Source of the DNA: Deltaproteobacteria bacterium
GTDB lineage: Bacteria; Desulfobacterota; Binatia; UTPRO1
Direction of reading: 5' to 3'
DNA length: 64,000 bases
Assembly: GCA_020852955.1 (NCBI GenBank)
Contig: JADYZW010000022.1
Coordinates: 10,468-74,467 of the forward strand
In this document: piece after piece, positions 1,784 through 52,714 of the stretch
How positions within the stretch are numbered: position 1 is the first letter of the stretch
Layout of the letters: every line of letters starts with the position of its first letter
Made by a program: the position numbers and the translations under genes
Notes under the pieces: generated by a model
What the model was told of the DNA's origin: nothing
What the model saw: the letters and a program-made list of their open reading frames with translations, nothing else
The model's database searches: none

Positions 1784-3414
1784 CGGCGATCCAGGTCTAC
1801 GACACCACCCTCCGCGACGGCTGCCAGGCCGAGGACATCACCTTCACCCTCGACGACAAGCTGCGGATCGCGGAGCGCCTCGACGCCTTCGGGATCCACT
1901 ACGTCGAGGGCGGGTGGCCGGGGTCGAATCCGCGCGACGCCGCGTTCTTCGCGGAGGCAAAGAAGCTCCGCCTGACGCACGCCAGGATCGCGGCGTTCGG
2001 ATCGACGCGGCGCTACGGCGTCACCTGCGACGTCGACCCGAACGTCCGCATGCTCCTCGCCGCCGAGACGCCGGTCGTGACGATCGTCGGCCGCACCTGG
2101 GACGTGCCGGTCGAGCACGATCTCCGCGTGCCCCTGGACGCGAACCTCGAGATCATCGACGACACCGTTCGCCACCTGCGCGCGCGCGTCGACGAAGTGA
2201 TCTTCGACGCCGAGCACTTCTTCGACGGCTACCGCTCCAACCCCGGGTACGCGCTCGCGTGCCTGCGGACAGCGGCCGAGGCGGGCGCGACGCTGCTCTG
2301 TCTATGCGACACACGCGGGGGCAGCGTACCGACCTTCGTCGGCGCGGCGACGCGCGCCGCGCGGTCCGCCGTCGCCGCCCCGCTCGGCATTCACTGCCAC
2401 AACGACGCCGAGCTCGCGGTCGCGAACTCGCTGGCCGCGGTGGAGGCGGGCGCCGTGCAGGTCCAGGGCGTGATCAACGGCTTCGGGGAGCGTTGCGGAA
2501 ACGCCAATCTCTGCTCCATCATCGCCAACCTCCAGCTGAAACTCGGGCATACGTGCGTTCCCGCCGGATCGCTCGCGACGCTCCAACAGCTCTCGCACTT
2601 CATCGACGAGCTCGCGAACCGCGAGCCCGATAAGCGCCAGGCGTACGTCGGCCTCTCGGCCTTCGCGCACAAGGGCGGCCTGCACGTCGCGGCCGTGCAG
2701 CGCCGGCGCGACATCTACGAGCACATCGATCCCGCGCTCGTCGGGAACCACCAGCGCGTGCTGCTCTCCGATCTCTCGGGCCGCAGCAACATCGTCTACA
2801 AGGCGCGCGAGTTCGGCATCGACCTCGACAGCCGCGATCCCGCGATCGTGCAGCTGCTCGCCGACCTCAAAGATCTCGAGAGCCGCGGCTATCAATACGA
2901 GGGCGCCGAGGCGAGCTTCGAGCTCCTCATGCAACGGGCGCTGCACGGCTACGAGCGCCGCTTCCGCCTGATCGGCTTCCGCGTGATCGACGAGAAGCGC
3001 CTCGAGAACGAGCCGCCGCTCTCCGAAGCGACCATCATGCTCGCCGGCCCCGACGGGAAGATGGAGCACACGGCCGCGACCGGCAACGGTCCGGTCCAGG
3101 CGCTCGACGGCGCGCTCCGCAAAGCTCTGATCCAGTTCTTCCCGGAGATCCAGGAGGTCGCGCTCCACGACTTCAAGGTGCGCGTGCTCGGCAGCGACGG
3201 CGGCGTCGGGGCGATCGTCCGCGTGCTGATCGAGTCGGGCGACGCGCACGACCGTTGGGGCACGGTCGGTGTGTCCCACAACCTCATCGAAGCGAGCTGG
3301 CAGGCCCTCGTCGATGCGCTCGACTACAAGCTCTACAAGGACTGCAAGCAGACGACGGCCTCCGACCGGGCGGGAGCACCCGAGCCCCGGCGCGCCGCCC
3401 GGGCCGAGGCCTGA
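1780..3414 (+). CDS. cimA: (R)-citramalate synthase (LeuA/CimA family)
   Basis: Inner ATG of the 409..3414 ORF, overlapping the lysC stop (ATGA). 544 aa. [15 protein letters not shown]-like barrel plus a C-terminal LeuA-type regulatory domain. Length and overall sequence fit the long bacterial CimA type, but CimA and LeuA cannot be fully separated by eye. Confidence 0.8.
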
Positions 3415-4157
3415 TGCCGAGCACCACCTGGGAGCGCATCAAGGAGGACGTGCGGGTCGTCTTCGACCGCGATCCCGCCGCACGCTCGACCCTCGAGATC
3501 CTGCTGACCTACCCGGGCGTGCACGCGCTCTTCTTCTACCGTGTCGCGCACTGGCTCTGGCGGCGCGACGCGAAGCTCCTCGCCCGCTTCCTTTCCAACG
3601 TCGGGCGCTTCTTCACCGGCATCGACATCCATCCCGGCGCCACCATCGGCCGCCGCCTCTTCATCGACCACGGCATGGGCACCGTCATCGGCGAGACCAC
3701 CGACATCGCCGATGACGTCACGCTCTACCAGGGCGTCACCCTCGGCGGCACGAGCCTCAACAAGGGGAAGCGGCACCCCACGATCGAGGATCACGTCGTC
3801 ATCACGACCGGCGCCACCGTCCTCGGTCCGGTGACGATCGGTTCGCGCAGCCGCATCGGCGCGGGCTCGGTCGTGATCCACGCCGTGCCGCCCGACGCGA
3901 CCGTCGTCGGCATCCCGGGGCGCGTCGTCCGTCGCGACGGGTTCGCGCGCACCCCTGGCCTCGAGCTCGTCGACCTCGACCACGGCGACCTTCCCGATCC
4001 GGTCGCGCGCGCCATCTCGATCCTCGTGAGCCACGTCGAGAAGCTCGAGCGCACGCTCGAGGAGCACCTGGCGCGCACCCAGGGCGCCGCCGATCAGCGC
4101 CCGAGCCCCGACGACGAGGACCTCGAACGCGTAAAGGCGTTCTTGAGCGAAGGATGA
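3414..4157 (+). CDS. cysE: serine O-acetyltransferase
   Basis: Inner ATG at 3414 overlaps the cimA TGA. 247 aa. SAT N-terminal helices (YRVAHWLW) and hexapeptide core [28 protein letters not shown]. Confidence 0.9.
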
Positions 4158-5320
4158 CGGCCGTCTACGCGGACTACGCCGCGGCCGCGCCCCTCCGTCC
4201 GGAAGCGCACGCCGCCGTGCTCGAAGCCCTCGACGCCGGGCTCGGCAATCCGTCGAGCGCGCACGACGCCGGGCGCCGGGCGCGCGCGCGGCTCGAAGCC
4301 GCGCGCGAGGAGGTCGCGGCGGCGCTCGGCGCCCACCCGCTCGAGATCGTATTCACGAGCGGCGCGACCGAAGCGAACAACCTCGCGCTCGCCGGGGTCG
4401 CGGCGGCGCGCGCGCTACCGATCCGCATCGCCGTCCCGGCGACCGAGCACGCGTCCGTCCTGGCGCCCGCCCGCGCGCTCGCGGCCCGCGACCACGTGCT
4501 GATCGCGCTCCCCGTGGACGCAACCGGCCGCACCGCGCCGGCGGCGGTCGCGACGGCCCGTCCGGATCTGGTTTCGGCCGCGCTGGTGAACGCGGAGACA
4601 GGCGTCGTCCAGGACGTCGCCGCCTTCGCGGCCGCGGCCCGGGCGCACGGCGCCGTCGTCCACGTCGATGCCGCGCAGGCGCCGGCCTTCGTGCCGGTCA
4701 CGGTCGCAGCGCTCGGCGCCGACCTCGTCACCCTCTCGAGCGTGAAGCTCGGCGGGCCGGCCGGCGCCGGCGCACTCTGGATCCGGCGCGGCACGGCCGT
4801 CGTGCCCCTGGCGCACGGCGGCCCGCAGGAGCAGCGGCTCCGCGCCGGCGGCGAGAACGTGGTCGCGGTCACCGGCTTCGCCACGGCGCTGGCATTGGCC
4901 GTCGCCGAACGCGAACGCGAGGTCGCGCGGCTCGGCACCCTCCGAACGCGGCTCAGGGCCGGCATCGCGGCGGCCTGGCCTGGCGCGCGCTTCACGCTCG
5001 CGCCCGACGTCCCGTCGACGCCCCACGTCGTGAGCGTCGTGCTCCCGGGGATCGTCGGCGAGGACGTCGTCGCCGCGCTCGACCTCGAAGGCATCGCGGC
5101 GTCGACGGGCGCCGCCTGCGCGGCCGGCGCCGCCGAGCCGTCGCACGTCCTCGTCGCCATGGGCCGCACGGCCGAAGAAGCGCGCGGCGCGCTGCGTTTG
5201 AGCCTCGGTTGGGCCAGCACCGCCCACGACGTCGACGCCATCGTCGCAGCCCTCGGCCGGCTCCGCGCCCGCGTCGCCCGACGATCCGAGGAGGCGGCAT
5301 GGCCGGCCCTCGGATCGTAG
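4154..5320 (+). CDS. cysteine desulfurase (NifS/IscS/YrvO-like, class V aminotransferase)
   Basis: 388 aa. [18 protein letters not shown]-lysine context SSVKLGGP, catalytic Cys loop [13 protein letters not shown] overlap with cysE. Confidence 0.85.
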
Positions 5321-6381
5321 TCGCCATGAGCGGCGGCGTGGACAGCTCCGTCGCCGCGGCGCTCCTGAAAGCCCAGGGCTTCGACGTCATCGGCGTCTCG
5401 ATGCAGCTCTCCGCCACCCCTGCGGCCACGGTGCGGGCGGGGCAGGGCTGCTGCTCGCTCGAGGACTTCCGCGACGCCCGCCGCGTCGCCGAGCGTCTCG
5501 CCATCCCGTACTACGTCTGGAACCTCACCGATACCTTCCGCGCCCGCGTGACCGACGTCTTCGCCTCCGAGTACGTCCGCGGCCGGACGCCGAATCCGTG
5601 CGTCCTCTGCAACCGCGACCTCAAGTTTGACGAGCTCCGCACGCGCGCGGGCGCGCTCGGCGCCGCCCTGGTCGCGACCGGCCACTACGCGCGCATCCTC
5701 CGGGAGGACGACGGGCGCTTCCGGCTGCTGCGCGCCCGCGACGAGCGCAAGGACCAGTCGTACTTTCTGTTCAGCCTCGCCCAGGAGGAGTTGGCGCGGA
5801 CGCGCTTCCCGCTCGGCGACCTCACCAAGGAGGAGGTGCGTCGCCACGCGCGAGCGCTCGGCCTGCCGGTCGCCGAGAAGCCGGAGAGCCAGGAGATCTG
5901 CTTCGTCCCCGACCGCGACTACGCGGGTTGGGTCGAGCGCCACGCGCTCGCCGGCGACCTCAAGCCCGGCGCGATCAAGGACGCCGACGGCCGCACCCTC
6001 GCCGTGCACGGCGGCGTGCACCGCTTCACGGTCGGCCAGCGCCGCCGTCTCGGCATCGGCGACGGCGTCGCGCGCTGGGTGACGCGCATCGACGGCGCGA
6101 CCGGCACGGTGCACGTCGGCGGCCGGGACGCGCTCGCGAACCGCGGCCTCGTCGCCGAGCAGGTGCGATGGACGGCGGGCGCGCCGGTCACGGACGGCGA
6201 CGTCCGGGTGCGCATCCGCCATCGCCACGCGCCCGTCGCGGCGCGCCTCCGCCATACGGCCGACGACCGCGTCGAGGCCTGGTTCGACGAACCGGCGACC
6301 GCCGTGACGCCGGGACAGGCGGCGGTCTTCTACCGCGGCGAGGAAGTGCTCGGCGGCGGCTGGATCGCGGAGGCCCTGTGA
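5299..6381 (+). CDS. mnmA: tRNA 2-thiouridine(34) synthase MnmA
   Basis: Inner ATG at 5299. 360 aa. PP-loop [25 protein letters not shown], and the KDQSYFL block typical of MnmA/TrmU. Confidence 0.93.
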   Translation: MAGPRIVVAMSGGVDSSVAAALLKAQGFDVIGVSMQLSATPAATVRAGQGCCSLEDFRDARRVAERLAIPYYVWNLTDTFRARVTDVFASEYVRGRTPNPCVLCNRDLKFDELRTRAGALGAALVATGHYARILREDDGRFRLLRARDERKDQSYFLFSLAQEELARTRFPLGDLTKEEVRRHARALGLPVAEKPESQEICFVPDRDYAGWVERHALAGDLKPGAIKDADGRTLAVHGGVHRFTVGQRRRLGIGDGVARWVTRIDGATGTVHVGGRDALANRGLVAEQVRWTAGAPVTDGDVRVRIRHRHAPVAARLRHTADDRVEAWFDEPATAVTPGQAAVFYRGEEVLGGGWIAEAL

Positions 6382-7181
6382 GCACGCCGCCCCACACCCA
6401 CCCGATCGAGGAGCGGCTCGGCTACGCGTTCCGCAGCCGGGATCTCCTCGACACCGCGCTCACCCACCGCTCCTTCTCCGCGACCCGCGGAGCGCGCAAC
6501 AACGAGAAGCTCGAGTTCCTCGGCGACGCGGTGCTGGAGCTCGCCGTCAGCGACCTCCTGATGAAGCACTCGCCCCAGCACCACGAGGGTGAGCTCTCGA
6601 AGCTCCGCGCCTCGCTGGTGAACGCACGCGTCCTCGCACAGAAGGCCGTCGCCCTCGGACTCGGCGATCTCGTCAAGCTCGGCAAGGGCGAAGAGAAATC
6701 CGGCGGCCGCAGCAAGGAGTCGATCCTCGCCGCGGCCTTCGAGGCCTTGATCGGCGCCATCTACCTCGACCGCGGGTTCGTCACCGCGCGACGCATCCTC
6801 GCGCGCCAGTTCGCGACCGACATCCGGTCGCGCAGCCCGAGCGCCGTCGAGGACTGCAAGACCAGGCTCCAGGAGATCACCCAGAAGCTCTTCAAGACGA
6901 CGCCGACGTACACGCTCGTCATGGAGACCGGGCCGGACCACGCGAAGCACTTCGTCAGCCAGATCTCGGTCGGCGCCCGCACCTTCGGGCGCGGCGAGGG
7001 TCGGAGCAAGAAGAGCGCGGAGCAGGCGGCGGCCATGGAGGCCCTCGAAGCGCTGCGCGTGGAAGCGCAGGCGGTGGTGCCCCGGCGGGCGAACGTGAGC
7101 GAGACGGGAGGACGCGCGGGCGATGACGGCGCCGGCACGTCACGAGCGGCATCGTCCTCCGGAACGAGAGGTCAGCGATGA
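6378..7181 (+). CDS. rnc: ribonuclease III
   Basis: GTG at 6378 overlaps the mnmA stop (GTGA). 267 aa. RNase III signature NEKLEFLGDAVLEL, C-terminal dsRBD (DHAKHF...GRSKKSAEQAAA), and a roughly 35-aa low-complexity tail. Confidence 0.92.
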   Translation: MSTPPHTHPIEERLGYAFRSRDLLDTALTHRSFSATRGARNNEKLEFLGDAVLELAVSDLLMKHSPQHHEGELSKLRASLVNARVLAQKAVALGLGDLVKLGKGEEKSGGRSKESILAAAFEALIGAIYLDRGFVTARRILARQFATDIRSRSPSAVEDCKTRLQEITQKLFKTTPTYTLVMETGPDHAKHFVSQISVGARTFGRGEGRSKKSAEQAAAMEALEALRVEAQAVVPRRANVSETGGRAGDDGAGTSRAASSSGTRGQR

Positions 7182-8317
7182 TTCCTGTTCCCGCGATTCG
7201 TGTCCGACAGTTCGGCGTCGACTTCTACCAGGCCGTCCTCACCGGCACCGACGTACAGAAGCTCGTCCGCTTCGAGGTGCTCTCCTACGACGCCGGCGTC
7301 GTCGACGCCGGGGTGGCGCAGGGCAAAGGCAAAAAGAAGAAGGTCGCCGCCATCAATTGGGAGCTGCTCGAGAAGCGCATCGCGCGCAGCGCCGAGGCGT
7401 ACCAGCGCCCCGTCATCCGGAAGAAGATCGTCGAGCTGATCGAGTACTACAACCAGTGCGCGGAGGCGGGAAACCTGCCCGCGATCCCCGGCGCCGTGCT
7501 CCTCGTCTCGGAGAAGCGCCTCGACTTCAACGCACTCGGTGGAAACCGCGCCCTCGGCATCCTCCACGTGCCCACCGAGGCGGGCATGTTGCGCGCCCTC
7601 GACGGCCAGCACCGCCTGCTCGCGCTGCACCAGCTCGCCGAAACGCGCCCGATCGGCGACGTGCAGGTGCCCGCCGTCATCTTCGACCGGCTAGCGCCCG
7701 ACCAGGCCGTCGAGATGTTCGTCACGATCAACGCCAAGCACACGAAGCTGAACCCGTCGCACCTCATCAGCCTGGCGGGACGGCGGCTCTACCCCGACAA
7801 GACCCTCGCGACCAGCCACGACATCATCCGCGCGCTCTCCGAGGACGCGGGTTCGCCGCTGCACGGCGAGATCAAGCTCTTCGGCGTCGGCAAGGGCCGG
7901 GTCGCGCAGGCACCCCTCGCCGAGGAGCTCAAGAACATCTTCACCTCGGTGCAGGCCCTCGGCGGCCGCGACGCCGAGCGCTTCCTCGACCAGGCGAAGC
8001 GCTTCTTCCTCAACTACTTCAAGCAGATCTCGCACGTCTTCGCGGCGGCGTGGAACGGGCGGAAGTATTCCATCAAGACCGGCATGGCGCTGCGCGCCTT
8101 CCTGCGCGTCGTCCCGGACGTGATCGCAGCCGCGAAGGCGAATCGCCACGACCCGGCGGACGCCAACGCGATCCGCGAGGTCATCGCACCCTGGGGCGAG
8201 ACGATCGGCGACGCGCGCTTCGAGACCGAAGGGGAGTGGCGCCAGAAGCTCGCCGGCGGTACGAGCAGCACCGTCGATCAGCTCGCGCGCGAGCTACGGG
8301 GAGCCCTGCGGCGTTGA
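7178..8317 (+). CDS. DGQHR domain protein (DndB-like, ParB/sulfiredoxin fold), orphan
   Basis: 379 aa. Ordered family blocks FYQAVLTGTDV, YQRPVIRKKIVELIEYY, LDGQHRLLAL, MFVTINAKHTKLNPSHL. ATG overlaps the rnc stop and the stop overlaps the era start. Confidence 0.8.
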   Translation: MIPVPAIRVRQFGVDFYQAVLTGTDVQKLVRFEVLSYDAGVVDAGVAQGKGKKKKVAAINWELLEKRIARSAEAYQRPVIRKKIVELIEYYNQCAEAGNLPAIPGAVLLVSEKRLDFNALGGNRALGILHVPTEAGMLRALDGQHRLLALHQLAETRPIGDVQVPAVIFDRLAPDQAVEMFVTINAKHTKLNPSHLISLAGRRLYPDKTLATSHDIIRALSEDAGSPLHGEIKLFGVGKGRVAQAPLAEELKNIFTSVQALGGRDAERFLDQAKRFFLNYFKQISHVFAAAWNGRKYSIKTGMALRAFLRVVPDVIAAAKANRHDPADANAIREVIAPWGETIGDARFETEGEWRQKLAGGTSSTVDQLARELRGALRR

Positions 8318-9213
8318 GCGATCCCGCGACACAGAACCGGCGGGCGGGCTTCATCGCGCTCGTCGGACGCCCGAACGTCGGGAAGTCCACCTTGCTGAAC
8401 CAGGTCGTCGGAACGACGCTCGCCGCCGTCGCCAACAAGCCGCAGACGACCCGCAACCGCATCGTCGGCATCCTGCACCGGGAGCGGGCGCAGCTCGTCT
8501 TCGTCGACACGCCCGGCATCCACCATCCCAAGACGCCGATGAACGCCCGCCTCGTCAGCACCGCGCGCCAGGCGCTCGGAGACGCCGACGTGGTCGTCCT
8601 CGTCCTCGATGCCGCGGCCGGCGTCACCGCAGCCGATCGCCACGTCGCGGCCGACGTCCGGGGGCGGCCCCGGACGGTGATCGCGCTCACCAAGGCCGAC
8701 CTCGTCTCGCGGAACGCGCTCATCCCCGCGTGCGCCGCGGCCCAGGCCCTCCTGCCGGACGCCGAGCTCGTCCCGGTCAGCGGCAAGACCGGCGACAACG
8801 TGGAGCGCCTGCTCGAGGTGCTGACGGCGAAGCTCCCCACGGGGCCGCCGCTCTACCCGCCGGATCAGGTGACCGAGCAGAGCGAGCGCTTCCTCGCCGC
8901 CGAGATCGTCCGCGAGAAGGTCATCGCCCAGACACGCGACGAGGTTCCCTACACGACGGCGGTCGTCGTCGAGGCGTTCCGCGAGGAGCCCGCGCGCCAC
9001 CTCGTCGTCATCACCGCCAGCGTGATCGTCGAGCGCGACAGCCAGAAGGGCATCGTCATCGGCGAGCGCGGGCAGCGGATCCGCGACATCGGGAAGGCCG
9101 CACGCCTCTCGCTGGAACGGCGCTTCGGCTGCCGGATCTATCTCGAGCTGCACGTGAAGGTCGTGCCGGAGTGGAGCCGCAACCCGAGGATGCTGGGTGA
9201 GCTCGGGATCTGA
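8314..9213 (+). CDS. era: GTPase Era
   Basis: TTG start at 8314, in frame within the 7123..9213 ORF. 299 aa. G1 GRPNVGKST, DTPG, TKAD, C-terminal KH domain. Confidence 0.92.
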   Translation: MSDPATQNRRAGFIALVGRPNVGKSTLLNQVVGTTLAAVANKPQTTRNRIVGILHRERAQLVFVDTPGIHHPKTPMNARLVSTARQALGDADVVVLVLDAAAGVTAADRHVAADVRGRPRTVIALTKADLVSRNALIPACAAAQALLPDAELVPVSGKTGDNVERLLEVLTAKLPTGPPLYPPDQVTEQSERFLAAEIVREKVIAQTRDEVPYTTAVVVEAFREEPARHLVVITASVIVERDSQKGIVIGERGQRIRDIGKAARLSLERRFGCRIYLELHVKVVPEWSRNPRMLGELGI

Positions 9214-9234
9214 CGCGCGCGCGGCGGATCCGCG

Positions 9235-10827
9235 ATGAGGGGACGGGCGCATCTCGGATCCGCGAAGCGCGCGACCGAGCGGAAGCGCGAGCGGCGCCGT
9301 GGCGGAAAGCCGCCGGCCGCGAAGCCGCGGCCGCCGAAGGCGCCGCGGTCTGTCTCCGCGGGGCGACCGCGGCGCGTGGTCGACGGCGCGGCGCCGAGCG
9401 CACCGGGAGCGGAACGGCCGCGGCGCGCGCCGCGGCCCGAGCGGGTCCCGCGCCCCGAGATCGCCCCCGGCGGCGTCGCGGCCCGGGCGCTCCCGCGAGT
9501 CGTTCTCGCGGGCCGGCCGAACGCCGGAAAGTCCTCGCTCTTCAATCGCCTCCTCCGCCGTCGGAAGGCCGTCGTCGATCCGACGCCCGGGGTCACGCGC
9601 GACGTCGTCGAGGCCGTCGCCACCTTCGGCGACCGCGCCGTACTGCTCGTCGACACCGGCGGCTTCGAGGGCGACCAGCGCACGGACGCCGCCGCCGAGC
9701 CGAACACGGACCGCCTCGACCGCGCCGTCCGCGACACCAGCCTCTCCGCGGTCGAGCGCGCGGTCCTCGTCGTCTATGTGCTCGACGGCAAGGCGGGGCT
9801 CTCGGCCGCCGACGAAGCTGCCGCCGCCGCGCTCCGCCGCCGGAACGTCCCCGTGCTCTTCGTCGTCAACAAGCTCGATTCGCCGGGGCGGCTCGCGCAG
9901 GGCTCGGAGTTCTACCGGCTCGGCGCCGACGAGCTCATCCCGGTGTCGGCTGCCCACGGCCACGGCATCCCGGAGCTCGTCGATCGCATCCTCGCCGCGA
10001 CCCCCGGCGCCGCCCTGGAAGGAGGGGCGGCCGCCGACGCCGACGCCGTCCGGGTCGCGATCGTCGGCCGCCCGAACGCGGGCAAGTCGTCGCTCGTGAA
10101 CCGCCTCCTCGGCTACGAGCGCGCGATCGTCGACGCTACCGCCGGGACCACGCGCGACGCGCTCGACACGATGCTCGAGGCGGACGGCGGGCGCTACGTA
10201 CTCGTCGACACCGCCGGCATCCGCCGCCGGAGCCGGGTCCACGATCCGCTCGAGCGCTCGTCGGTCGCAAGCGCCCTCGAGGCGCTCGGCCGCGCCGACG
10301 TCGCCCTCCTGGTGATCGACGCCGTCGAAGGGCTCACCACCCAGGACCAGAAGCTCGCCGCGCTCGCGTGGAACGAGGGACGGGGGCTCGTGCTCGTCGT
10401 CAACAAATGGGACCTCCGCCGCGACGAGAAGCCCGCGACCTACCTCGCGAATCTCGCGCACCTCATGCCGGCGCTCGCGGGCTTCCCCATGCTCACGATC
10501 TCCGCGAGGACCGGGGCCGGCGTCGAGACCGTGCTGCCGACGGTGCAACGCGTCGCCGCGGCGCACGCGGCCGAACTCCGGACCGCGCGTCTCAACCAGG
10601 TGGTGATGGACGCGTTCCGGGCGAAGGAGCCGCCGGCGGTGCAAGGACGCCGCCCACGCCTCTATTACGCGGCCCAGGTGGGGCGGCGGCCTCCCACGAT
10701 CGTCGTCTTCTCCAGCATCCCCGGAGGCATCCACCCGAGCTACCACCGCTACCTTTCGAACCAGATCGCGAACGCCTTCCGCTTGAAGGGCACGCCGCTC
10801 CGCGTGAGCTTCCGGGCGCGCCACTGA
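9235..10827 (+). CDS. der: ribosome-associated GTPase Der (EngA) with basic N-terminal extension
   Basis: 530 aa. Tandem GTPase domains (GRPNAGKSS twice, DTGG/DTAG, NKLD/NKWD) plus a KH-like C-terminus. The exact start is uncertain, but no in-frame start codon lies closer than about 45 codons to the first G domain. Confidence 0.9.
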   Translation: MRGRAHLGSAKRATERKRERRRGGKPPAAKPRPPKAPRSVSAGRPRRVVDGAAPSAPGAERPRRAPRPERVPRPEIAPGGVAARALPRVVLAGRPNAGKSSLFNRLLRRRKAVVDPTPGVTRDVVEAVATFGDRAVLLVDTGGFEGDQRTDAAAEPNTDRLDRAVRDTSLSAVERAVLVVYVLDGKAGLSAADEAAAAALRRRNVPVLFVVNKLDSPGRLAQGSEFYRLGADELIPVSAAHGHGIPELVDRILAATPGAALEGGAAADADAVRVAIVGRPNAGKSSLVNRLLGYERAIVDATAGTTRDALDTMLEADGGRYVLVDTAGIRRRSRVHDPLERSSVASALEALGRADVALLVIDAVEGLTTQDQKLAALAWNEGRGLVLVVNKWDLRRDEKPATYLANLAHLMPALAGFPMLTISARTGAGVETVLPTVQRVAAAHAAELRTARLNQVVMDAFRAKEPPAVQGRRPRLYYAAQVGRRPPTIVVFSSIPGGIHPSYHRYLSNQIANAFRLKGTPLRVSFRARH

Positions 10828-10838
10828 CTTCGTCACCC

Positions 10839-11744
10839 ATGCCGCCCCGCGAGACCCTCAGCGATACCGACCCGTCCGAGAACACCTCGTCCGCCGCGCG
10901 CTCGTTCGCGACCCTCGCGCTCGCGCTCCGCAACGCAGCGCAACGCTTCTACGCCGACGGATGCCCGACGCTCGCCGCCGCGATCTCGTTCTACGCGCTC
11001 CTGTCGCTGATCCCGGTCCTGTTCCTCGTGATCGCGGTCGCCGGGTACGTGATCGGGTCGTCGCAGGACACCTATGGCGCCGTCCTCCGATGGGTCCGCG
11101 AGTTCATCCCGCACCTGAGCGACGACTTCACCCGCAACCTCGAATCGGTGGTGCAGAACCGCGGCCGCCTCTCCTGGCTCGGCCTCGGCGCGCTGATCAT
11201 CGCCGCGAGCCTCGTCTTCCAGGCGATCGAGTTCGCGCTCGACCGCGTCTTCACCGTCGACCGCCGGCGCGGCTTCTGGCGGTCGCGCTTCCTCTCGCTG
11301 GGCGTCGTCGTCGGGATGGGGATCGCCATGCTCTTCTCGTTCTACGTCGGCATCCTGATCCACGCGCTCCGCGCCGACCCGACCCTCGCGCCGCTCGGTC
11401 ACGATCTCTTCGTGCCGCTCGCGAAGGGGCTCCGGGTCCAGTACCTCACGTCGGTCGCGCTCGTCGTAGGGGCCTTCACGCTCTCCCTGCGCGTCTTTCC
11501 GCACGCTCACGTCGGCTGGCGCGAGGCCTTCACCGGCGGCTGCGTCGGCGCCGGGCTCTGGGAGGTGGGACGGCGCATCTTCCTCTGGTACCTGGCGAAC
11601 CTGGCGCAGTTCTACGTCGTCTACGGCTCGCTCGGTGCGCTCGTGGCCGTGATGGTGTGGATCTACATGTCCGCGACGATCTTCCTCTACGCGGCCGAGG
11701 TCGTGGTCGCGCTGCAACGCGCGGAGCGCGCGCCCCGCGTCTGA
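10839..11744 (+). CDS. YihY/BrkB (ribonuclease BN-like) family membrane protein
   Basis: Inner ATG at 10839. 301 aa, multi-pass membrane protein with the AAAISFYALLSLIPVL block typical of the family. Confidence 0.8.
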   Translation: MPPRETLSDTDPSENTSSAARSFATLALALRNAAQRFYADGCPTLAAAISFYALLSLIPVLFLVIAVAGYVIGSSQDTYGAVLRWVREFIPHLSDDFTRNLESVVQNRGRLSWLGLGALIIAASLVFQAIEFALDRVFTVDRRRGFWRSRFLSLGVVVGMGIAMLFSFYVGILIHALRADPTLAPLGHDLFVPLAKGLRVQYLTSVALVVGAFTLSLRVFPHAHVGWREAFTGGCVGAGLWEVGRRIFLWYLANLAQFYVVYGSLGALVAVMVWIYMSATIFLYAAEVVVALQRAERAPRV

Positions 11745-47010: not shown

Positions 47011-47092
47011 CGTCGCCTCCTCGACGGCCTACCCGCCTGCTGCGATCGCCGTCGAGCCGATCGCCTCGCCAATCCATCCCTCCCGAGAGAAG

Positions 47093-47166
47093 TGCCCCCG
47101 GCGCGATTCGAACGCACGGCCCCAGGATTAGGAATCCTGTGCTCTATCCACCTGAGCTACGGGGGC
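47093..47166 (-). tRNA. tRNA-Arg (anticodon CCT)
   Basis: Minus-strand read GCCCCCG-TA-GCTC-AGGTGGATA-GAGC-A-CAGGA-TTCCTAA-TCCTG-GGGCC-GTGCG-TTCGAAT-CGCGC-CGGGGGC-A folds as a canonical cloverleaf. CCA is not encoded. Confidence 0.93.
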
Positions 47167-47167
47167 G
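47128..47167. repeat. attL core (inside the intact tRNA, anticodon loop to 5' end plus 1 nt)
   Basis: ttaggaatcctgtgctctatccacctgagctacgggggcg, identical to 52760-52799. Confidence 0.9.
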
Positions 47168-47177
47168 AATAAGGAAG

Positions 47178-48278
47178 TCAGACGGTTACCGATTGCTGAG
47201 GAGCTTGTCCAGGATCGACTGTAGCGGAATCTGTAGCAGCAGAGGACCGGAAGGCCGCATTCAGCCTGGCAGCCGCCTCACGCAGATCGCCCTCCGCGAC
47301 GATGTGGTACCGATCGAACACCGAGCGCGTCTTGTGGCCTGACATCTGCATCGCGACTCGTTCCGGGATGCCTGCCCGGATCATGTTTCGGACTGCCGTC
47401 CTTCTGAAATCGTGCGGAATTCGGTCGGGTACCCCGGCGTCACCGCACGCTTCACGGAACCGCCCGTGGAAGGTCTTGATAACCTTTCCGTCTCGGTGAA
47501 ACACGAGATCGCATTGCGGATAGCGGCTGGCGATGTCCAGCTGGCCCTGCAGCAGCGCCGCCAGTTCGTCCGTAGCGAAGATCACTCGCCCGTCCTTGTT
47601 CTTCGTGGTGCCAGGTTCCAGCCTGACTACTCCAGCGTCCAAGTCCACGTTGCTCCACTTCAACTGTAGAACTTCGTCGCGCATGCGCCATCCCGTGTGG
47701 TAAGCGAACGTTACTGGCGCTCTTAGCCATTCTGGGAGTTTTGCCAACACCGACTCGAACTGGCTGCGCTCGAAAAACCCGGTACGTACGTTGTTCTCTT
47801 CCAACGTCGGAACGTGCGGTGCCCTCGCAAGAACACCGATTCGGATCGCAAGGTTGTACATCCTTCGAAGCGCAGCCAGCTCTCGATTGATCGTCGAGTT
47901 CCTAGCCCCTTCCGACTTTCGCTTCGCAATGTAACCCTGCACGTCTGCGCTCGTGATTTCCTGTGCCCTTCGTCCCCGAAAATGCGGGTCCAGATGCTTG
48001 TCGATACGGCGCTGGGCATCAGCGAGCGAACTGCGATCGTTGACGCGGTAGTCGTCTAGCAGCAACTTCTCCAACCTTTCGAACGTCACGCGATTCGCTC
48101 CGAGCAGAAGTTTTCCCTCTTCCACCGCAGCGAGCCTCAGCTTCAGGAGACTACGCGCTTCAGTAACGTCTTTCGTGTGCGCGGACTCCTGCTCTCGTTT
48201 CGTCGGACCTGGGTACGCAATCCACCAGATTCGACCCCTGCGGTACACTGATCCACTTCCTCGTCGATACTTAGGCAT
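47178..48278 (-). CDS. int: tyrosine-type site-specific integrase
   Basis: 366 aa. Catalytic set R (TGWRMRDE), HDFRRT, SGHK, DRYHIV. The stop codon lies 11 nt upstream of the tRNA 5' end. Confidence 0.93.
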   Translation of the reverse strand: MPKYRRGSGSVYRRGRIWWIAYPGPTKREQESAHTKDVTEARSLLKLRLAAVEEGKLLLGANRVTFERLEKLLLDDYRVNDRSSLADAQRRIDKHLDPHFRGRRAQEITSADVQGYIAKRKSEGARNSTINRELAALRRMYNLAIRIGVLARAPHVPTLEENNVRTGFFERSQFESVLAKLPEWLRAPVTFAYHTGWRMRDEVLQLKWSNVDLDAGVVRLEPGTTKNKDGRVIFATDELAALLQGQLDIASRYPQCDLVFHRDGKVIKTFHGRFREACGDAGVPDRIPHDFRRTAVRNMIRAGIPERVAMQMSGHKTRSVFDRYHIVAEGDLREAAARLNAAFRSSAATDSATVDPGQAPQQSVTV

Positions 48279-48852
48279 TCTCGCCTCTCCTTTCGCGCAG
48301 CGCCTTCTTCTTGAGACGCGGTCGATACTTGGTCTTCATGTAATCTTTCATGTATTTGCGTTTCTTATCCTTGTGCTTAATCTGTTGCTCTTTCGCGAGA
48401 CAATTGGTCGAACAGTACAGTTGCCTTCGCGTACTGATCACCGCGAATACACGGCGGCAGTGCGGACATCGCCGGTAAGGAAATGGATCGTCACGGATCG
48501 TGTTCAGCAGCAACACCGTCGCGTACTGCGGGTCCGCGACATACCGATCCGGATAGTCGACCCGCACAGTTTCCCGAACGCGATCGAGGCGAAGCTGCGC
48601 GCTGTTGGCTGGTGCCGCGAGGATCACCGCTTCGCCGTCCAGCAGGCCATTCAAGACGTCGCTTACGATCTTGTGGACCGCCTCGAACCACCCGCGTGGT
48701 AGACGGATCGAGCCGGATGGCAGCGACGCGCGATAGGCGGTCTCCAGCCGTACGCGCTCCTCGTTGCTGAGCTGCTTCGTAGATTCGACCGACGCCAGGT
48801 CCGCTAGCAGCTCCACCGTCTCTTCACTCGCGTATCGAAACCATCTCGCCAT
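48271..48852 (-). CDS. element-encoded Zn-ribbon protein (CGNR-like CxxC...CxxxC), unknown function
   Basis: 193 aa. RCPHCRRVFAVISTRRQLYCSTNC followed by a Lys-rich tail. Overlaps the int start by 8 nt and is lower in G+C. Confidence 0.65.
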   Translation of the reverse strand: MARWFRYASEETVELLADLASVESTKQLSNEERVRLETAYRASLPSGSIRLPRGWFEAVHKIVSDVLNGLLDGEAVILAAPANSAQLRLDRVRETVRVDYPDRYVADPQYATVLLLNTIRDDPFPYRRCPHCRRVFAVISTRRQLYCSTNCLAKEQQIKHKDKKRKYMKDYMKTKYRPRLKKKALRERRGENA

Positions 48853-48876
48853 GTGACCTCCGTTAGCTCTTCCAAA

Positions 48877-48894
48877 ACCATCAGTCCTGATGGT
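48877..48894. promoter_or_regulatory. palindromic operator candidate in the element's divergent control region
   Basis: ACCATCAG-tc-CTGATGGT, perfect 8+8 palindrome. It lies 25 nt upstream of the 48852 start codon, between the divergent genes. Confidence 0.4.
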
Positions 48895-48975
48895 CGAAGA
48901 ATGTTAACCCGTACCATCTAGCCTTTCCAGGAGCTAACACGTATCGTCCCCGCACCACAAGGAGGACGAGACTCG

Positions 48976-49203
48976 ATGGAGAAACCACTACACACGGCGC
49001 GCGAGCTTGCAGCTCACCTCAAGATCGCGCTGTCGACGGTCAGGGCGTACACGCGGCTGACGGACATCCCCCGCCACCCGATCGGCCGCCTGATCCGTTT
49101 CAACCTGTCAGAGGTTCAGCAGTGGCTGCGGGACGGTGGATCGCTCGCACCCGGTCACCGCACGAAGACCGAGCGTGCGAGGGCGCGTGACGATGCAGCC
49201 TGA
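48976..49203 (+). CDS. AlpA/excisionase-family HTH DNA-binding protein
   Basis: 75 aa. AGGAGGA RBS. ARELAAHLKIALSTVRAYTR...IRFNLSEVQQWL matches the MerR-like excisionase/AlpA HTH pattern. Confidence 0.75.
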   Translation: MEKPLHTARELAAHLKIALSTVRAYTRLTDIPRHPIGRLIRFNLSEVQQWLRDGGSLAPGHRTKTERARARDDAA

Positions 49204-49708
49204 CCTCGCCCTGGTGTCCCCGTTGGACTGGGCACTGCACTACATCCAGCACGGCCTGTACGTGTTTCCGCTGCACACGCCTCGGGGCACGGGATGCTCG
49301 TGCGGGAAAGCGCCGTGCAAGGATGCAGGGAAGCACCCGCGAACCGAGCACGGATTCCATGACGCCACGATCGACCCTGGTCTCGTGCGGGAATGGTTTC
49401 ACTGCTGTTCTGACGCGAACGTAGGCATTGCGACCGGGCAGAAGAGCGGGATCATCGTGCTCGACGTCGACTTTCGCAGCGGCGGCGACGTCAGCATTGC
49501 GGAACTGATCGACCGCTTCGGGTGGTTCGACACTCCCGTCGTGAAAACTGGAGACGGGCGGCACCTCTACTTCAACCACCCCGGCGGTCAGGTGCCCTGC
49601 ACCCGTAGCCTCAGCGGTTATCCTGGGATCGATCTTCGGGGCGACGGTGGGTACGTCGTCGCACCCCCGAGTCTCCACCCCTCTGGAAGGCGCTATGTTT
49701 GGGATTAA
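49193..49708 (+). CDS. bifunctional DNA primase/polymerase (Prim-Pol) N-terminal domain protein
   Basis: 171 aa from the inner ATG. GLYVFPLH..., GIATGQKSGIIVLDVD, GRHLYF, GDGGYVVAPPSLHPSGRRYVW. Ends abruptly just after the conserved Y.W. Confidence 0.8.
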   Translation: MQPDLALVSPLDWALHYIQHGLYVFPLHTPRGTGCSCGKAPCKDAGKHPRTEHGFHDATIDPGLVREWFHCCSDANVGIATGQKSGIIVLDVDFRSGGDVSIAELIDRFGWFDTPVVKTGDGRHLYFNHPGGQVPCTRSLSGYPGIDLRGDGGYVVAPPSLHPSGRRYVWD

Positions 49709-50906
49709 GCCGCTTTCGAACATGCCTCCGGAGCTAGTGGAGCTTTTCCGGAAAAAGCCCCCTCGTCCCGTCGTCCCGGAGTCGTTCACGGTGGCTCGCG
49801 CGCTGTCACCTCGGATGCAGCGGCTGCTTCGGAGTGGGGACGTGGATCATGCGTACCGAAAGCGTGATGGCTCCGTGGACCAATCACGCATGATCGCGGC
49901 AGTGCTCCTCGAAATGGTGAACGCGGGGTGGACGGTCGAGGCTGCGTATGCGGCCCTGATGAACCCGCGCAATCCCGCAGGCCACAAGGTCCAAGAGCGA
50001 ACCAACAAGAGCGCGCGACAATACGTGCGACTGGCGTATCGGCGCGCACTCCATCGGGCACGCACTGATCCGGCCTTCCGCGATCGCAACGACGCTCTGG
50101 CTGTCCTGGCTCCCCTTCGCGATCAAGCCTTGACCATGACGTTGCCTCGCGGCGGCGGCGTTGCACGTCGCGCACTAGAGGCATCGTACTTCGCGATGCT
50201 GACTCTTGCGGAGAAGAAGGGCGGGCCCGTCTTCCCAGCGAGCTACCGCGAGATCGCGGAGACAGCGGGGCTTGGACTCCGCTCCACCTACAAGGCGGTT
50301 CGTGAACTGATCCGGCGGGAACTCGTCAAGGTCCGTCGGAAAGGAAGAGGGACGAAGGGGTCCACCTGGCGGCTGGTGCTGCGAAAGGAGGACCAACTGA
50401 CCACACTATCACCTAGAGATACAGATGGGCTAGATGATAGTGTGGTTCCTAGGGGAACTATTTACAACGACAGAACAATATGGGGAAACATCTCAAGATT
50501 CCACAACCACGATCTATTCCGGTACCGCGCGTTTGGCAAGACCGCAGGCATGATCACGGCTCACCTGTCGATCGACTGTCCGCTGACCCCGCGTGAGCTT
50601 GCGCAGCGGTGTCACTGCACGACCGCCACGGCCAAGCGAGTCTTGAAGAGACTGGCCGAGAACGGCATCGCGGTTCAGGCTCTTACAAAGAAGGAGTGGC
50701 TGCGGGGCTCTGCTTCCTTGGACGAGGTTGCCGTAACCACTGGGGCGGCGGGACGAGGCGAGAAGCAGAAGCGGCAGCATCAAGTCGAACGCGACCAGTA
50801 CGCGCGGTTGCTGCGACACTGGCGACGCGGACCGCTCAAGATGGTGCGAAAGAGAAGCAACGAGTGCCATCGTGAACCAACGAAGGAGACTAGGAAGGGA
50901 GGGTAA
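49695..50906 (+). CDS. replication protein C-terminal part (helical primase-associated region plus two winged-helix segments); possibly the frameshifted continuation of the Prim-Pol gene
   Basis: 403 aa from ATG 49695, in the +1 frame relative to 49193..49708 and overlapping it by 14 nt. wHTH-like REIAETAGLGLRSTYKAVRELI and RELAQRCHCTTATAKRVLKRL. Confidence 0.65.
   Translation: MFGIKPLSNMPPELVELFRKKPPRPVVPESFTVARALSPRMQRLLRSGDVDHAYRKRDGSVDQSRMIAAVLLEMVNAGWTVEAAYAALMNPRNPAGHKVQERTNKSARQYVRLAYRRALHRARTDPAFRDRNDALAVLAPLRDQALTMTLPRGGGVARRALEASYFAMLTLAEKKGGPVFPASYREIAETAGLGLRSTYKAVRELIRRELVKVRRKGRGTKGSTWRLVLRKEDQLTTLSPRDTDGLDDSVVPRGTIYNDRTIWGNISRFHNHDLFRYRAFGKTAGMITAHLSIDCPLTPRELAQRCHCTTATAKRVLKRLAENGIAVQALTKKEWLRGSASLDEVAVTTGAAGRGEKQKRQHQVERDQYARLLRHWRRGPLKMVRKRSNECHREPTKETRKGG
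50401..50445. repeat. inverted repeat inside an AT-rich patch of the rep ORF (candidate element ori)
   Basis: ccacactatcacctag - 13 nt - ctagatgatagtgtgg: 16-bp arms, 1 mismatch, inner 11 bp perfect. The surrounding 50401-50520 is about 43 % G+C by hand count. Confidence 0.6.
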
Positions 50907-51098
50907 ATCGGAGTATGCGTCCGTATTCGCGGGCTCGCTGGTTCCGAAGAGTCACGCATGGCCCCGAGGCGTGTGTCCCAGCTGCATTGTCGCCTGACGT
51001 GAGTCGCGGGAAGAGAGCAAAGTCCTCCCCACCCCAGCTGCGTTTCGTCGCCTTCGATAGCAGTAGCTACCCGACGCGTGTGAATCTGTTCGATGGTC

Positions 51099-51383
51099 TT
51101 ACGGCCAATCGACCATTCCGGCCTTGGTCTTGCAGGACACGGTATCGATACACTTCGGCCGCTTCGCGTGCTTTGCGAGAATCACCTTTGCGATGGCGAC
51201 GGCCTCATCCATGTTCCGACCGTTGAAGTTTTCGCTGTTCAACGGATTGAACATGGCGTCGCACTTCTGTGCGAGATAGCGACACTCCGCAGCCTCGTTG
51301 GGTAGCGCCGCCGCAATCTCTGGGCCTCCGGCCCAAACCATCGATGGTAGTACCACCACGACTAAGGCTGCCACTTTCCTCAT
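51099..51383 (-). CDS. small exported 4-Cys protein (ECRYL paralogue, short form)
   Basis: 94 aa from the inner ATG. Signal MRKVAALVVVVLPSMVWA. AAALPNEAAECRYLAQKCD and AKHAKRPKCIDTVSC are shared with the upstream paralogue. Confidence 0.6.
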   Translation of the reverse strand: MRKVAALVVVVLPSMVWAGGPEIAAALPNEAAECRYLAQKCDAMFNPLNSENFNGRNMDEAVAIAKVILAKHAKRPKCIDTVSCKTKAGMVDWP

Positions 51384-51433
51384 GATCGAAGCCCTTTCCA
51401 CGTCTGTTGCGTCGCGGGATCGAGGGGATGAGC

Positions 51434-51886
51434 CTACGGCTTCAGTTTTCCGTTCTCGTCGAGTTCGCTGCACTGCTTGAGGCATGCTGGCGGGGTCTGA
51501 TGCTTCGCTGCGATCACGTCAGCGGCTGATTTGATCTTCCTGCGCGCCAGACCCTGCCTGCTGCTCGCGATACGAGCCAGGCGTTGGGCATCGGTCGCAC
51601 GTTCCAGATCACTTGGGCTACGGCTCCGCTCAGTCGCCTCAATCGCGCTTCCCGCGTCCGCGATCGCACGGCTTGCTTCCGAACGAGCCGCTTCGGCGTC
51701 CTCGCACAACCTCAGCAGGTAACGACACTCTGACGCCTCGTCCGGAAGTGCAGCTGCCGTCGCTCCCGCTCCGTCATCACCCCCGATCAGCGGCTGTGCG
51801 TCGAGTACCGCCGCGAACAGGAGGACTGCACCGGTCGCGATGAGCACGGTGACTCTACGACGTGCCATCAACGCAGCCAACGTCAT
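51434..51886 (-). CDS. small exported 4-Cys protein (ECRYL paralogue, long form)
   Basis: Last 150 aa of the 51434..52645 ORF. Signal/TM VTVLIATGAVLLFAAVL. AAALPDEASECRYLLRLCED and AKHQTPPACLKQCSEL. The ATG overlaps the stop of the upstream gene (ATGA). Confidence 0.6.
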   Translation of the reverse strand: MTLAALMARRRVTVLIATGAVLLFAAVLDAQPLIGGDDGAGATAAALPDEASECRYLLRLCEDAEAARSEASRAIADAGSAIEATERSRSPSDLERATDAQRLARIASSRQGLARRKIKSAADVIAAKHQTPPACLKQCSELDENGKLKP

Positions 51887-52338
51887 TGCGGTATGCAGTT
51901 GCCCGAAGCACCGCAGTTGTGAGAGTCGCAGATGCCCCCGCACTCCGCGTCTGAACAATCGAGGCGACACTGCCCCGTTTCGCATCGCCCCACCCGTAGG
52001 GCGTTTCCTATCTTGCTGACTTCCGGATCGCCGCCCTGTCCGCAGTCCGGATTGAAGGGCGCACCAGGGCACTGGCAGAAGAAGAAGCGCCCGTCCTGTA
52101 GACAATCCGCACCATCGGCGCACTGGGCGTTCTCGCCTGGCGTCGCAGTTGGATTCGGAACGGGATTGCAGTTCAGTGTCGCGGGCAATCCAGCTGCGGC
52201 GCGAAGCACGTTCACTCCATCGGTCACGGTAACCCGACCGTCGCCGTTGACGTCTCCACAGACCTGAGCCATCCCGGATGTGGGAAGCGCGAGGGCAGCC
52301 AGTAGAAGGAAGTATCGAAACAAGAGCGGCGTTTTCAT
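51883..52338 (-). CDS. exported dockerin-like / cysteine-rich protein
   Basis: 151 aa from MKTPLLF. Signal peptide ending ...PTSGMA, a dockerin/EF-hand-like CGDVNGDGRVTVTDGVNVLR, then about 14 Cys in the last 95 residues. Confidence 0.65.
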   Translation of the reverse strand: MKTPLLFRYFLLLAALALPTSGMAQVCGDVNGDGRVTVTDGVNVLRAAAGLPATLNCNPVPNPTATPGENAQCADGADCLQDGRFFFCQCPGAPFNPDCGQGGDPEVSKIGNALRVGRCETGQCRLDCSDAECGGICDSHNCGASGNCIPQ

Positions 52339-52676
52339 GGCCGCGCCCATAGCGCGATCGGCGAGCGTTCTTCAAGGACGCGGATCGGAACGCGAGCACA
52401 CTCTGCGGCTGCAACACCGAATTTGGTTTCGCTACTCCCTTCGATCGAGGCCACACCGCGCTAGCTGACCTGCGTGGTGCGCGCGGAAGTTCTAGCCACC
52501 CACGCTCAAGACCAATGATCCGACGCGCTACGAGGCGATTCTGCGCGTTCTGAGGGCACTTCCAGCGAACGCGATGCGAGGAGTGCTCTACCCCTCCGAC
52601 CCGCCTGGCGCTGTGGCACGAAACGTAGCTGAGGCGCGGTGACAAGCGGCGATACTGAGAACGACCGAGGAGAGAA

Positions 52677-52714
52677 TCTCACGGAGCGAACGTTGTTGAT
52701 TCCGCTCCGTGAGA
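52677..52714 (-). terminator. strong hairpin just inside attR (possible insulator/terminator or attP arm structure)
   Basis: Perfect 12-bp stem tctcacggagcg / cgctccgtgaga with a 14-nt loop. On the minus strand it is followed by ttctctcc. Confidence 0.3.

Follow-up and report, generated by a model that had tools for sequence, protein, structure and literature searches.

A solitary, strongly conserved DGQHR-domain gene inserted between rnc and era in one clade of Binatia

The DNA analysed here is a stretch of 64,000 nucleotides, hereafter the window, from contig JADYZW010000022.1 (assembly GCA_020852955.1) of a UTPRO1-type bacterium of the Binatia. Between its rnc and era genes lies a gene for a stand-alone DGQHR-domain protein, labelled X throughout. 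To our knowledge, nearly all DGQHR/DndB-like proteins described so far are accessories of mobile DNA-modification or defence systems. The X subfamily displays the opposite properties: it is solitary, apparently retained by vertical descent, and under tighter constraint than Era and Der, the essential GTPases encoded alongside. X thus behaves like a core housekeeping gene, unlike a part of a DNA-modification or defence island. The locus is made up as follows.

7178-8317, forward strand: X, stand-alone DGQHR-domain protein gene, 379 amino acids (aa)
7166-7171, forward strand: Shine-Dalgarno-like GAGAGG for X, within the tail codons of rnc, 6 nt before the ATG
6378-7181, forward strand: rnc (RNase III, 267 aa), TIGR02191 at 248.6 bits
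8314-9213, forward strand: era (GTPase Era, 299 aa) with a TTG start, NF000908 at 343.9 bits, the alignment beginning at residue 10

Read directly from the sequence, the start of X overlaps the rnc stop (ATGA, 7178-7181) and its stop overlaps the TTG start of era (TTGA, 8314-8317), which is the wedged position described by a first-pass annotation of this DNA. The TTG at 8314 is the sole canonical start that follows the X stop and precedes the Era G1 motif, and an independent gene caller produced the same overlapping calls on three other assemblies. Since an identical X protein is found in the rnc-X-era order on three independent SRA assemblies, this order is not an assembly artefact. The codon-position GC of X (0.69/0.42/0.92) is like that of the neighbouring genes, in agreement with the host-like composition noted earlier. 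A scan of positions 2800-11200 gave zero promoter-like sites and one terminator-like site, inside cysE and below shuffle expectation, a result that is uninformative at 69% GC.

X is a member of the DGQHR domain family. It matches the NCBIfam model TIGR03187 with E=3e-32 and 112.5 bits against a cutoff of 58.85 (X residues 6-315). It also exceeds the cutoff of 29.1 set for the Pfam DndB family PF14072, reaching 51.8 bits over positions 2-160 of this 338-position profile. The DGQHR/DndB-like identity first assigned by eye therefore holds at the level of profiles, and the four blocks quoted in its support are all found in the translation: FYQAVLTGTDV at residues 16-26, YQRPVIRKKIVELIEYY at 75-91, LDGQHRLLAL at 141-150 and MFVTINAKHTKLNPSHL at 180-196. 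The narrower models failed their cutoffs, with 47.7 bits versus 300 for the DpdB equivalog NF041060, 16.4 versus 328 for the DndB equivalog TIGR03233 and 39.4 versus 450 for DGQHR_dnd_1. Because both equivalog scores are far under their cutoffs, X is, as far as profile scores can tell, neither DndB nor DpdB. Its strongest match to a named model is with the DpdB model of PADLOC (E=4e-14, residues 67-355).

Three motifs define the domain, namely a QR pair, the DGQHR pentapeptide and FxxxN (PMC4619093). We located them in an alignment of 35 sequences that includes an outgroup of 33% identity.

7403-7408, forward strand: QR pair Q76 R77, invariant in 35 of 35 sequences
7601-7615, forward strand: DGQHR pentapeptide D142-R146, invariant in the alignment; counterpart of the nucleoside triphosphate (NTP)-binding motif GxxR of ParB and DGQQR of DUF262
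7718-7732, forward strand: FxxxN motif F181-V-T-I-N185, with F181, I184 and N185 invariant in the alignment

The role of the pentapeptide motif in nucleotide handling has been described for SspE, DndI and DpdB (PMC10164549, PMC11662687). Searches of the PDB by sequence (phmmer) and by profile returned zero relatives of X even at E<=10, and a plasmid collection held relatives at about 25% identity only, in unrelated plasmid contexts.

The AlphaFold2 model of the full-length protein (pLDDT, the predicted local distance difference test, 76.9; pTM, the predicted template modelling score, 0.56) shows two domains and a loop.

7178-7774, forward strand: N-terminal domain with a putative ParB/Srx fold (DGQHR/DUF262-like) and putative NTP binding, residues 1-199, a beta/alpha domain in AlphaFold2
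7274-7402, forward strand: variable Lys/Arg-rich loop, predicted disordered, residues 33-75, pLDDT <50
7775-8314, forward strand: all-alpha C-terminal domain, residues 200-379; AlphaFold2 of the domain alone gives pLDDT 84.2 and pTM 0.84

Taken alone, the N-terminal half matches Pfam DndB with 53.9 bits and GmrSD_N partially. Against BFVD, a collection of predicted viral structures, Foldseek matched DndB-like, GmrSD_N, Noc and ParB/Spo0J models with E-values from 3.6e-10 to 1e-3; five such matches to the N-terminal fold lie at E<=1e-3, with low TM-scores. The top-ranked relevant PDB matches were a ParB-N domain (5k5d, E=0.5 for the N-terminal fold) and DndI (9jfl, E=1.1), neither of them significant, so that the comparison with ParB and DndB proposed at the outset gave matches among predicted structures and none of significance among experimental ones. 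The loop 33-75 differs in sequence and length among orthologues and keeps its basic character.

The C-terminal domain carries its own invariant positions: a GxGxG..QA loop (236-245), R306-x3-R310, W292 and W339. It aligns to the PADLOC and NCBIfam DpdB models as far as residue 323-355. Residues 200-379 match no Pfam family at E<=10 and no PDB fold (best E=1.4), and HNH and HEPN structures are absent among the 50 PDB fold matches listed for this domain. A HEPN C-terminus, a lead taken from Makarova 2013, was considered and rejected: there is no conserved Rx4-6H, no Pfam match and no significant PDB fold match. Similarly, Pfam detected neither ParBc nor a helix-turn-helix (HTH) in X.

How X came to lie between rnc and era can be read from its relatives. 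The rnc-X-era clade was sampled in 14 species-level genomes, 10 metagenome contigs and 3 SRA assemblies. In a metagenome scan with the RNase III of the window, X directly followed rnc in 10 of the 10 contigs whose rnc was at least 67% identical. In the 14 contigs with rnc at 52-59% identity, era lay downstream of rnc in 12 and X in none; the rnc-to-era spacing of these sister contigs is mostly 8-140 nt, and several retain the cysE-iscS-mnmA...rnc-era-der order. As sister lineages carry rnc-era without X, the rnc-era arrangement is ancestral and X was inserted, into a pre-existing cluster, in one clade of Binatia. In the synteny survey, the rnc-X-era arrangement recurs in 14 species-level genomes and is confined to this clade.

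Within the clade, the two junctions of X behave differently. Adjacency of rnc and X holds in 24 of 24 loci (14 genomes and 10 metagenome contigs). The overlap of the rnc stop with the X start is kept in every clade locus, with AACG(A/G)GAGG..ATGA present in all 14 genome loci. On the other side, X and era overlap only in the nearest subclade; elsewhere a gap of 130-280 nt lies between them, or an insert of 1.5-5.7 kb made up of other genes. These inserts comprise an FG-GAP repeat protein, a transglutaminase-like protein overlapping the X stop, and further open reading frames (ORFs). Since other genes have entered between X and era, the X-era junction is an insertion hot spot.

~7060-7178, forward strand: low-complexity C-terminal tail of RNase III, clade-specific (loci L001-L013, L059, L087-L096)
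L008 7301-8533, L011 7125-12800 and L012 2452-4724: loci with inserts between X and era

The RNase III tail counts 25-40 aa after the double-stranded-RNA-binding domain, is rich in Ser, Gly and Arg, and ends in ...SSGTRGQR or ...SGTGGER. RNase III of the sister group has no tail and ends 8-12 residues past this domain; the tail is found only where X follows, and its last codons make up the Shine-Dalgarno sequence of X. To judge from these sequences, X lost its own promoter in this clade, and its translation came to be coupled to that of rnc by the ATGA overlap together with the Shine-Dalgarno sequence of the tail. The locus would then be a clean example of gene capture into a conserved operon, with loss of a promoter and gain of an upstream tail bearing a new ribosome-binding site.

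Outside this clade, X orthologues reside elsewhere. With each GTDB species represented by a single genome, a scan revealed a relative in 237 species, of which the best 80 loci were examined. Fourteen have the rnc-X-era order (75-96% identity; UTPRO1-type Binatia), and the 66 others carry the orthologue at another place, at 59-71% identity over its full length. The orthologue group is compact (55-100% identity) and spans Binatia, Rokubacteria/Methylomirabilota and Syntrophia-like bacteria. Among 1.84 billion representatives clustered at 50% identity, few full-length clusters stand at 46-58% identity, after which identity falls to about 35%; the nearest outgroup, at this level, is likewise solitary amid unrelated genes.

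Contexts were derived from neighbour clustering and Pfam annotation and checked with an independent gene caller. Other Binatia display RmuC > X > GST > Rieske, SpoU...X > Rieske or CitMHS > X; Syntrophia-like bacteria display X > rubredoxin-reductase-type flavoprotein > 185-aa ORF; in Rokubacteria/Methylomirabilota the order is DAO flavoprotein > X < GreA. No universal partner gene emerges from these loci: the Syntrophaceae downstream ORF c5 (185 aa, no Pfam match), RmuC, Rieske, the rubredoxin-reductase-type protein and DAO are all lineage-restricted and absent from the window. No dnd, dpd or ssp partner was found among the annotated neighbours in the 80 genome loci or in the outgroup loci; in these loci the homologues do not sit beside dnd or dpd genes. 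The placement behind rnc is not unique to one assembly.

Stand-alone orthologues usually possess their own conserved sigma70-type promoter about 30-70 nt upstream. It reads TTGACA-N17-TAnAGT in Rokubacteria (L053-L079), with a short leader and no obvious Shine-Dalgarno sequence, and CTTGACC-N17-TAGATT or TAGAGT in other Binatia (L022-L044). An operator motif common to all groups was not found upstream of stand-alone orthologues. Some Syntrophaceae carry, 30-90 nt before the X start, the 14-bp palindrome GCTAWGCGCWTAGC in duplicate; the other loci of the 171 lack it. This palindrome is a candidate operator, reminiscent of the autoregulation of DndB.

L054 5909-5969, L058 5923-5936 and L073 5942-5969: sites of the palindrome

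Redox genes recur beside X (L015-L040, L047-L080, L053-L079, L168-L171), none of them in the window. A 101-aa Rieske ferredoxin follows the orthologue in 12 Binatia loci, often after GST, a rubredoxin/ferredoxin-reductase-type flavoprotein follows it in 9 Syntrophaceae loci, and a DAO flavoprotein precedes it in 13 Rokubacteria loci. This recurrence may be due to chance. Oxidoreductases are common, and the window clade does not show the theme.

The pattern of substitutions sets X apart from its operon. The ratio of nonsynonymous to synonymous substitution rates (dN/dS) was calculated by the Nei-Gojobori method in seven comparisons, and the values quoted are those against locus L001: 0.041 for X, 0.10 for rnc, 0.14 for cysE, 0.19 for era and for mnmA, 0.20 for iscS and 0.23 for der. 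X has the lowest dN and dN/dS of the operon in six of the seven comparisons; against locus L002, rnc is lower. X is therefore under very strong purifying selection. Protein identity follows the same trend, with 82-86% for X, 64-68% for Era, 61-65% for Der, about 70% for MnmA and 55-60% for IscS. The databases hold more than 5,700 relatives of the protein. In a neighbour-joining tree the sequences group by taxon, with 55-67% identity between phyla, which suggests that the transmission of X through Binatia, Rokubacteria/Methylomirabilota and Syntrophia-type Desulfobacterota has been mainly vertical.

The reading frame of X is intact in nearly all of about 110 loci, locus L010 being the lone exception. 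There, positions 5999-6167 of a long-read metagenome-assembled genome seem to contain a frameshift or an indel close to the 5' end of X: the match does not begin until 6167, and a start extrapolated from it falls out of register. This is probably an assembly error. In locus L013, X (2661-3797, P0084) is a mosaic: residues 1-186 are 90-97% identical to the window protein, and residues 187-379 are 46-69% identical to it and equidistant (53-60%) from every sampled group. The contig is just 4 kb long, and the mosaic reflects either a swap of the C-terminal domain or a chimeric assembly with its joint in the conserved FxxxN region.

The other genes of the window comprise the co-directional cluster around X, in the order cysE, iscS-like, mnmA, rnc, X, era and der, and a distant island.

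3414-4157, forward strand: cysE-like serine acetyltransferase, first gene of the cluster, named from its conserved position and hexapeptide sequence
4154-5320, forward strand: IscS/NifS-like cysteine desulfurase (class V aminotransferase), Pfam Aminotran_5 at 195.5 bits
5299-6381, forward strand: mnmA (tRNA 2-thiouridylase), Pfam tRNA_Me_trans HUP, PRC-barrel and beta-barrel domains
9235-10827, forward strand: der (EngA GTPase), two MMR_HSR1 domains and a KH_dom-like domain
47092-47166, reverse strand: tRNA-Arg(CCT), bordering a low-GC stretch within 47092-52700
47178-48278, reverse strand: tyrosine integrase, in the 5.5-kb island
49647-50906, forward strand: double-HTH protein, in the 5.5-kb island

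The cysE-like gene keeps its position in clade loci and in sister loci devoid of X, where the iscS-like/mnmA pair is found too. We considered IscS, MnmA and X as a Dnd-like thiolation trio (analogues of DndA, DndC and DndB) and rejected it: sister loci retain iscS-mnmA without X, and orthologues located elsewhere have neither gene beside them.

Forty-nine genes of the window were scanned against PADLOC for defence systems. X matched the DpdB and DndB models, and one gene, presumably the iscS-like desulfurase at 4154-5320, matched those of DndA and SspA. The remaining matches are to dGTPase, GTPase (LeoA) and MotB-like (ZorB) models, with two weak single-member matches (PDC-M37B and DolB). DndC/D/E, DpdA/C, SspB-D and restriction components were found in none of the 49 genes, and the orphan status attributed to X within these 64 kb is thereby upheld. 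The wider surroundings are core housekeeping genes: aspartokinase, guaB, guaA, dnaE, hflX and a BrkB/YihY-like gene. The lone mobile element of the window is a 5.5-kb integrase island at tRNA-Arg(CCT), 40 kb from X. Its GC content is 54-65%, against 69% for the window, and it also holds three ORFs with no Pfam match; it looks like a small integrated element.

Taken together, we consider X to be a housekeeping NTP-gated ParB-fold nucleic-acid-binding protein, whose coupling to rnc would be a lineage-specific expression arrangement; we give this reading a probability of about 0.55. As all nucleotide-site motifs are invariant, X is taken as an NTP-gated switch binding nucleic acid. DpdB, DndB, SspE/DndI and ParB serve as models here, and the protein is accordingly a probable homodimer. 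Its N-terminal domain would bind and hydrolyse an NTP, with ATP, GTP and CTP indistinguishable from sequence, and the nucleotide cycle would gate the binding of nucleic acid by the basic loop and the all-alpha C-terminal domain. The bound nucleic acid would most likely be double-stranded DNA. The place behind rnc would ensure constitutive, growth-linked co-expression, comparable to that of recO, with no dedicated role in RNA processing. In the rnc-era-recO operon of E. coli, recO, a DNA-metabolism gene, is co-transcribed with rnc and era and has no RNA-processing role. X is likened to it as a gene presumably co-transcribed with rnc; RecO is a protein unrelated to X, and its gene lies downstream of era, not between rnc and era.

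Several points weigh against this reading. NTP binding, dimerisation and the nucleic-acid target are all properties that we infer for X. The full-length model is of moderate quality, and Foldseek against the PDB gave no significant match for either the whole protein or the C-terminal domain. The solitary status of X concerns its linked neighbours. Moreover, the rnc-X overlap is perfectly kept across the clade, a coupling stronger than co-expression needs, and a second Binatia lineage has X directly behind another nuclease gene, that of RmuC. From these last two features, a functional tie of X to nucleases is possible.

Such a tie might be sought in RNA. X would then be a partner of RNase III, and perhaps of Era, in acting on double-stranded RNA or pre-rRNA, for instance as an NTP-gated clamp recruiting or restraining RNase III. 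The operon as a whole is concerned with tRNA, rRNA and ribosome biogenesis. The ATGA overlap and Shine-Dalgarno sequence are kept in all 14 genome loci and in the clade metagenome contigs, RNase III gained its tail in this clade, and a SpoU-type RNA methyltransferase gene lies about 400 nt upstream of X in one other Binatia context. Yet 66 of the 80 orthologues, 59-71% identical, have neither rnc nor era beside them, which means that the conserved function must be independent of the linkage; the link to era is loose even inside the clade, and sister lineages have rnc-era without X. Furthermore, Pfam and the PDB fold search detected no RNA-binding or HEPN-type domain in X, and the characterised DGQHR/DUF262 relatives all act on DNA. 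We regard an RNA-directed role as improbable. The co-option into an RNA-processing and ribosome-biogenesis operon advanced by the first-pass annotation lacks support in that form, the rnc linkage being confined to one clade, in which only the rnc-X overlap is conserved.

No more probable is a component of DNA modification whose partners are encoded elsewhere in the genome, resembling DndB or DpdB, which as an ATPase assists a TGT-like DNA transglycosylase. Dnd components, DndA for example, often lie apart from the rest (PMC3632139; PMC10853773), and DpdB is the closest named model, by the PADLOC match as well as by NF041060; equivalog cutoffs for DpdB, DndB and DGQHR_dnd_1 are however missed widely. 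Likewise, the IscS-like desulfurase and the PP-loop enzyme MnmA are encoded two genes and one gene upstream of the rnc-X pair, but iscS-mnmA is the standard tRNA-thiolation pair and does without X in sister loci. Zero linked partners were found in about 100 loci from three phyla, nor in the outgroup, and the conservation and vertical inheritance of X are unlike those of mobile modification systems. An origin of X in a DNA-modification island, as supposed previously, is unsupported for its part: DndB and DpdB cutoffs failed and the outgroup of about 35% identity is solitary too.

To the same low degree, X could be a DndB-like transcription factor, that is, an NTP-modulated, sequence-specific DNA-binding repressor with an autoregulatory or global role. 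DndB binds palindromes in its own promoter (PMC4507180), and GCTAWGCGCWTAGC precedes X in some Syntrophaceae. This palindrome is limited to one sublineage, and no operator-like motif extends across groups; in the window clade, X would have no promoter of its own to autoregulate, and Pfam detects no HTH domain in it.

Slightly less probable again, X would be a housekeeping NTP-gated nucleic-acid clamp acting in trans with duplex-specific nucleases. This possibility is raised because two Binatia lineages have independently put X just behind a nuclease gene (rnc and rmuC), nearly or fully overlapping it. If true, X would be the core-genome equivalent, in split form, of SspE, DndI and GmrSD, in which DUF262 and HNH are fused, and the clamp might license or restrain cleavage of double-stranded RNA, R-loops or recombination intermediates.

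A single-gene defence or abortive-infection effector of ParB/DUF262 type, working for example by nucleotide depletion or as a nuclease, is very unlikely. Many ParB/DUF262 proteins are linked to defence (PMC3632139; PMC10853773), and distant relatives of X, at about 25% identity, occur on plasmids. On the other hand, a dN/dS of 0.04, taxon-congruent clades, stable lineage-specific synteny, host-like GC at third codon positions and housekeeping neighbours speak for a resident gene, no nuclease domain was found in X, and the only mobile element of the window is 40 kb off. Finally, a functionless, fixed remnant of a lost modification island, an alternative that the first-pass annotation had entertained and that the absence of partner genes could suggest, can be dismissed, since X has the lowest dN/dS of the operon in six of seven comparisons, with a frame intact in nearly all loci, invariant motifs and thousands of relatives.

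The solitary state, vertical retention and tight constraint of X suggest that a ParB-fold nucleotide switch has a core function hitherto unrecognised. Its hosts belong to three phylum-level lineages that have been little studied although they abound in metagenomes of soil and sediment, and they are mostly uncultured.

Among characterised systems, DpdB is a homodimeric ATPase stimulated by DNA. Its NTPase domain, of ParB fold, is N-terminal and is followed by an all-alpha domain that lacks an HNH motif; in the predicted dimer these C-terminal domains surround a basic tunnel sized for double-stranded DNA (PMC10164549). X appears to share this two-domain layout, and its length is similar (about 370-380 aa). 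DpdB differs by the sequence DGQQR, where X has DGQHR, and neither dpdA nor dpdC lies near X in any locus. Moreover, DpdB is part of a mobile restriction-modification island, whereas X appears as a vertically inherited, core-like gene.

DndB has been described as an ATP-modulated DNA-binding repressor of the dnd phosphorothioation operon (PMC4507180; PMC10853773). In vitro, binding of ATP as well as of GTP was observed for a DndB-like protein, with a specificity unpredictable from sequence (bioRxiv 10.1101/2025.10.10.680097). The N-terminal half of X passes the Pfam DndB model, and QR, DGQHR and FxxxN are common to both proteins. In contrast with DndB, X has no dndCDE among the window genes or its annotated neighbours. 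A HEPN-type C-terminus has been proposed for DndB (PMC3632139), whereas none was detected in X.

In SspE and DndI, the DGQQR motif drives the NTP hydrolysis that governs an open/closed switch (PMC10164549; PMC11662687). X shares with SspE, DndI and GmrSD (DUF262 with HNH/DUF1524) a probably homologous N-terminal NTPase fold and the signature motif, together with a weak GmrSD_N Pfam match; it differs from them in having no detected nuclease domain and no defence context. Sulfiredoxin differs from X at the active site, the catalytic Cys of FGGCHR being replaced in X by the invariant Gln Q144. As for the ParB/Noc CTPase clamps, X has no ParBc Pfam match, HTH, GERRxRA box or parA neighbour, but the BFVD matches suggest that it has the fold of their superfamily, and they provide the likely paradigm for nucleotide-gated dimerisation on DNA. 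X would thereby add to the recent view of the ParB fold as a general NTP-dependent switch beyond chromosome segregation.

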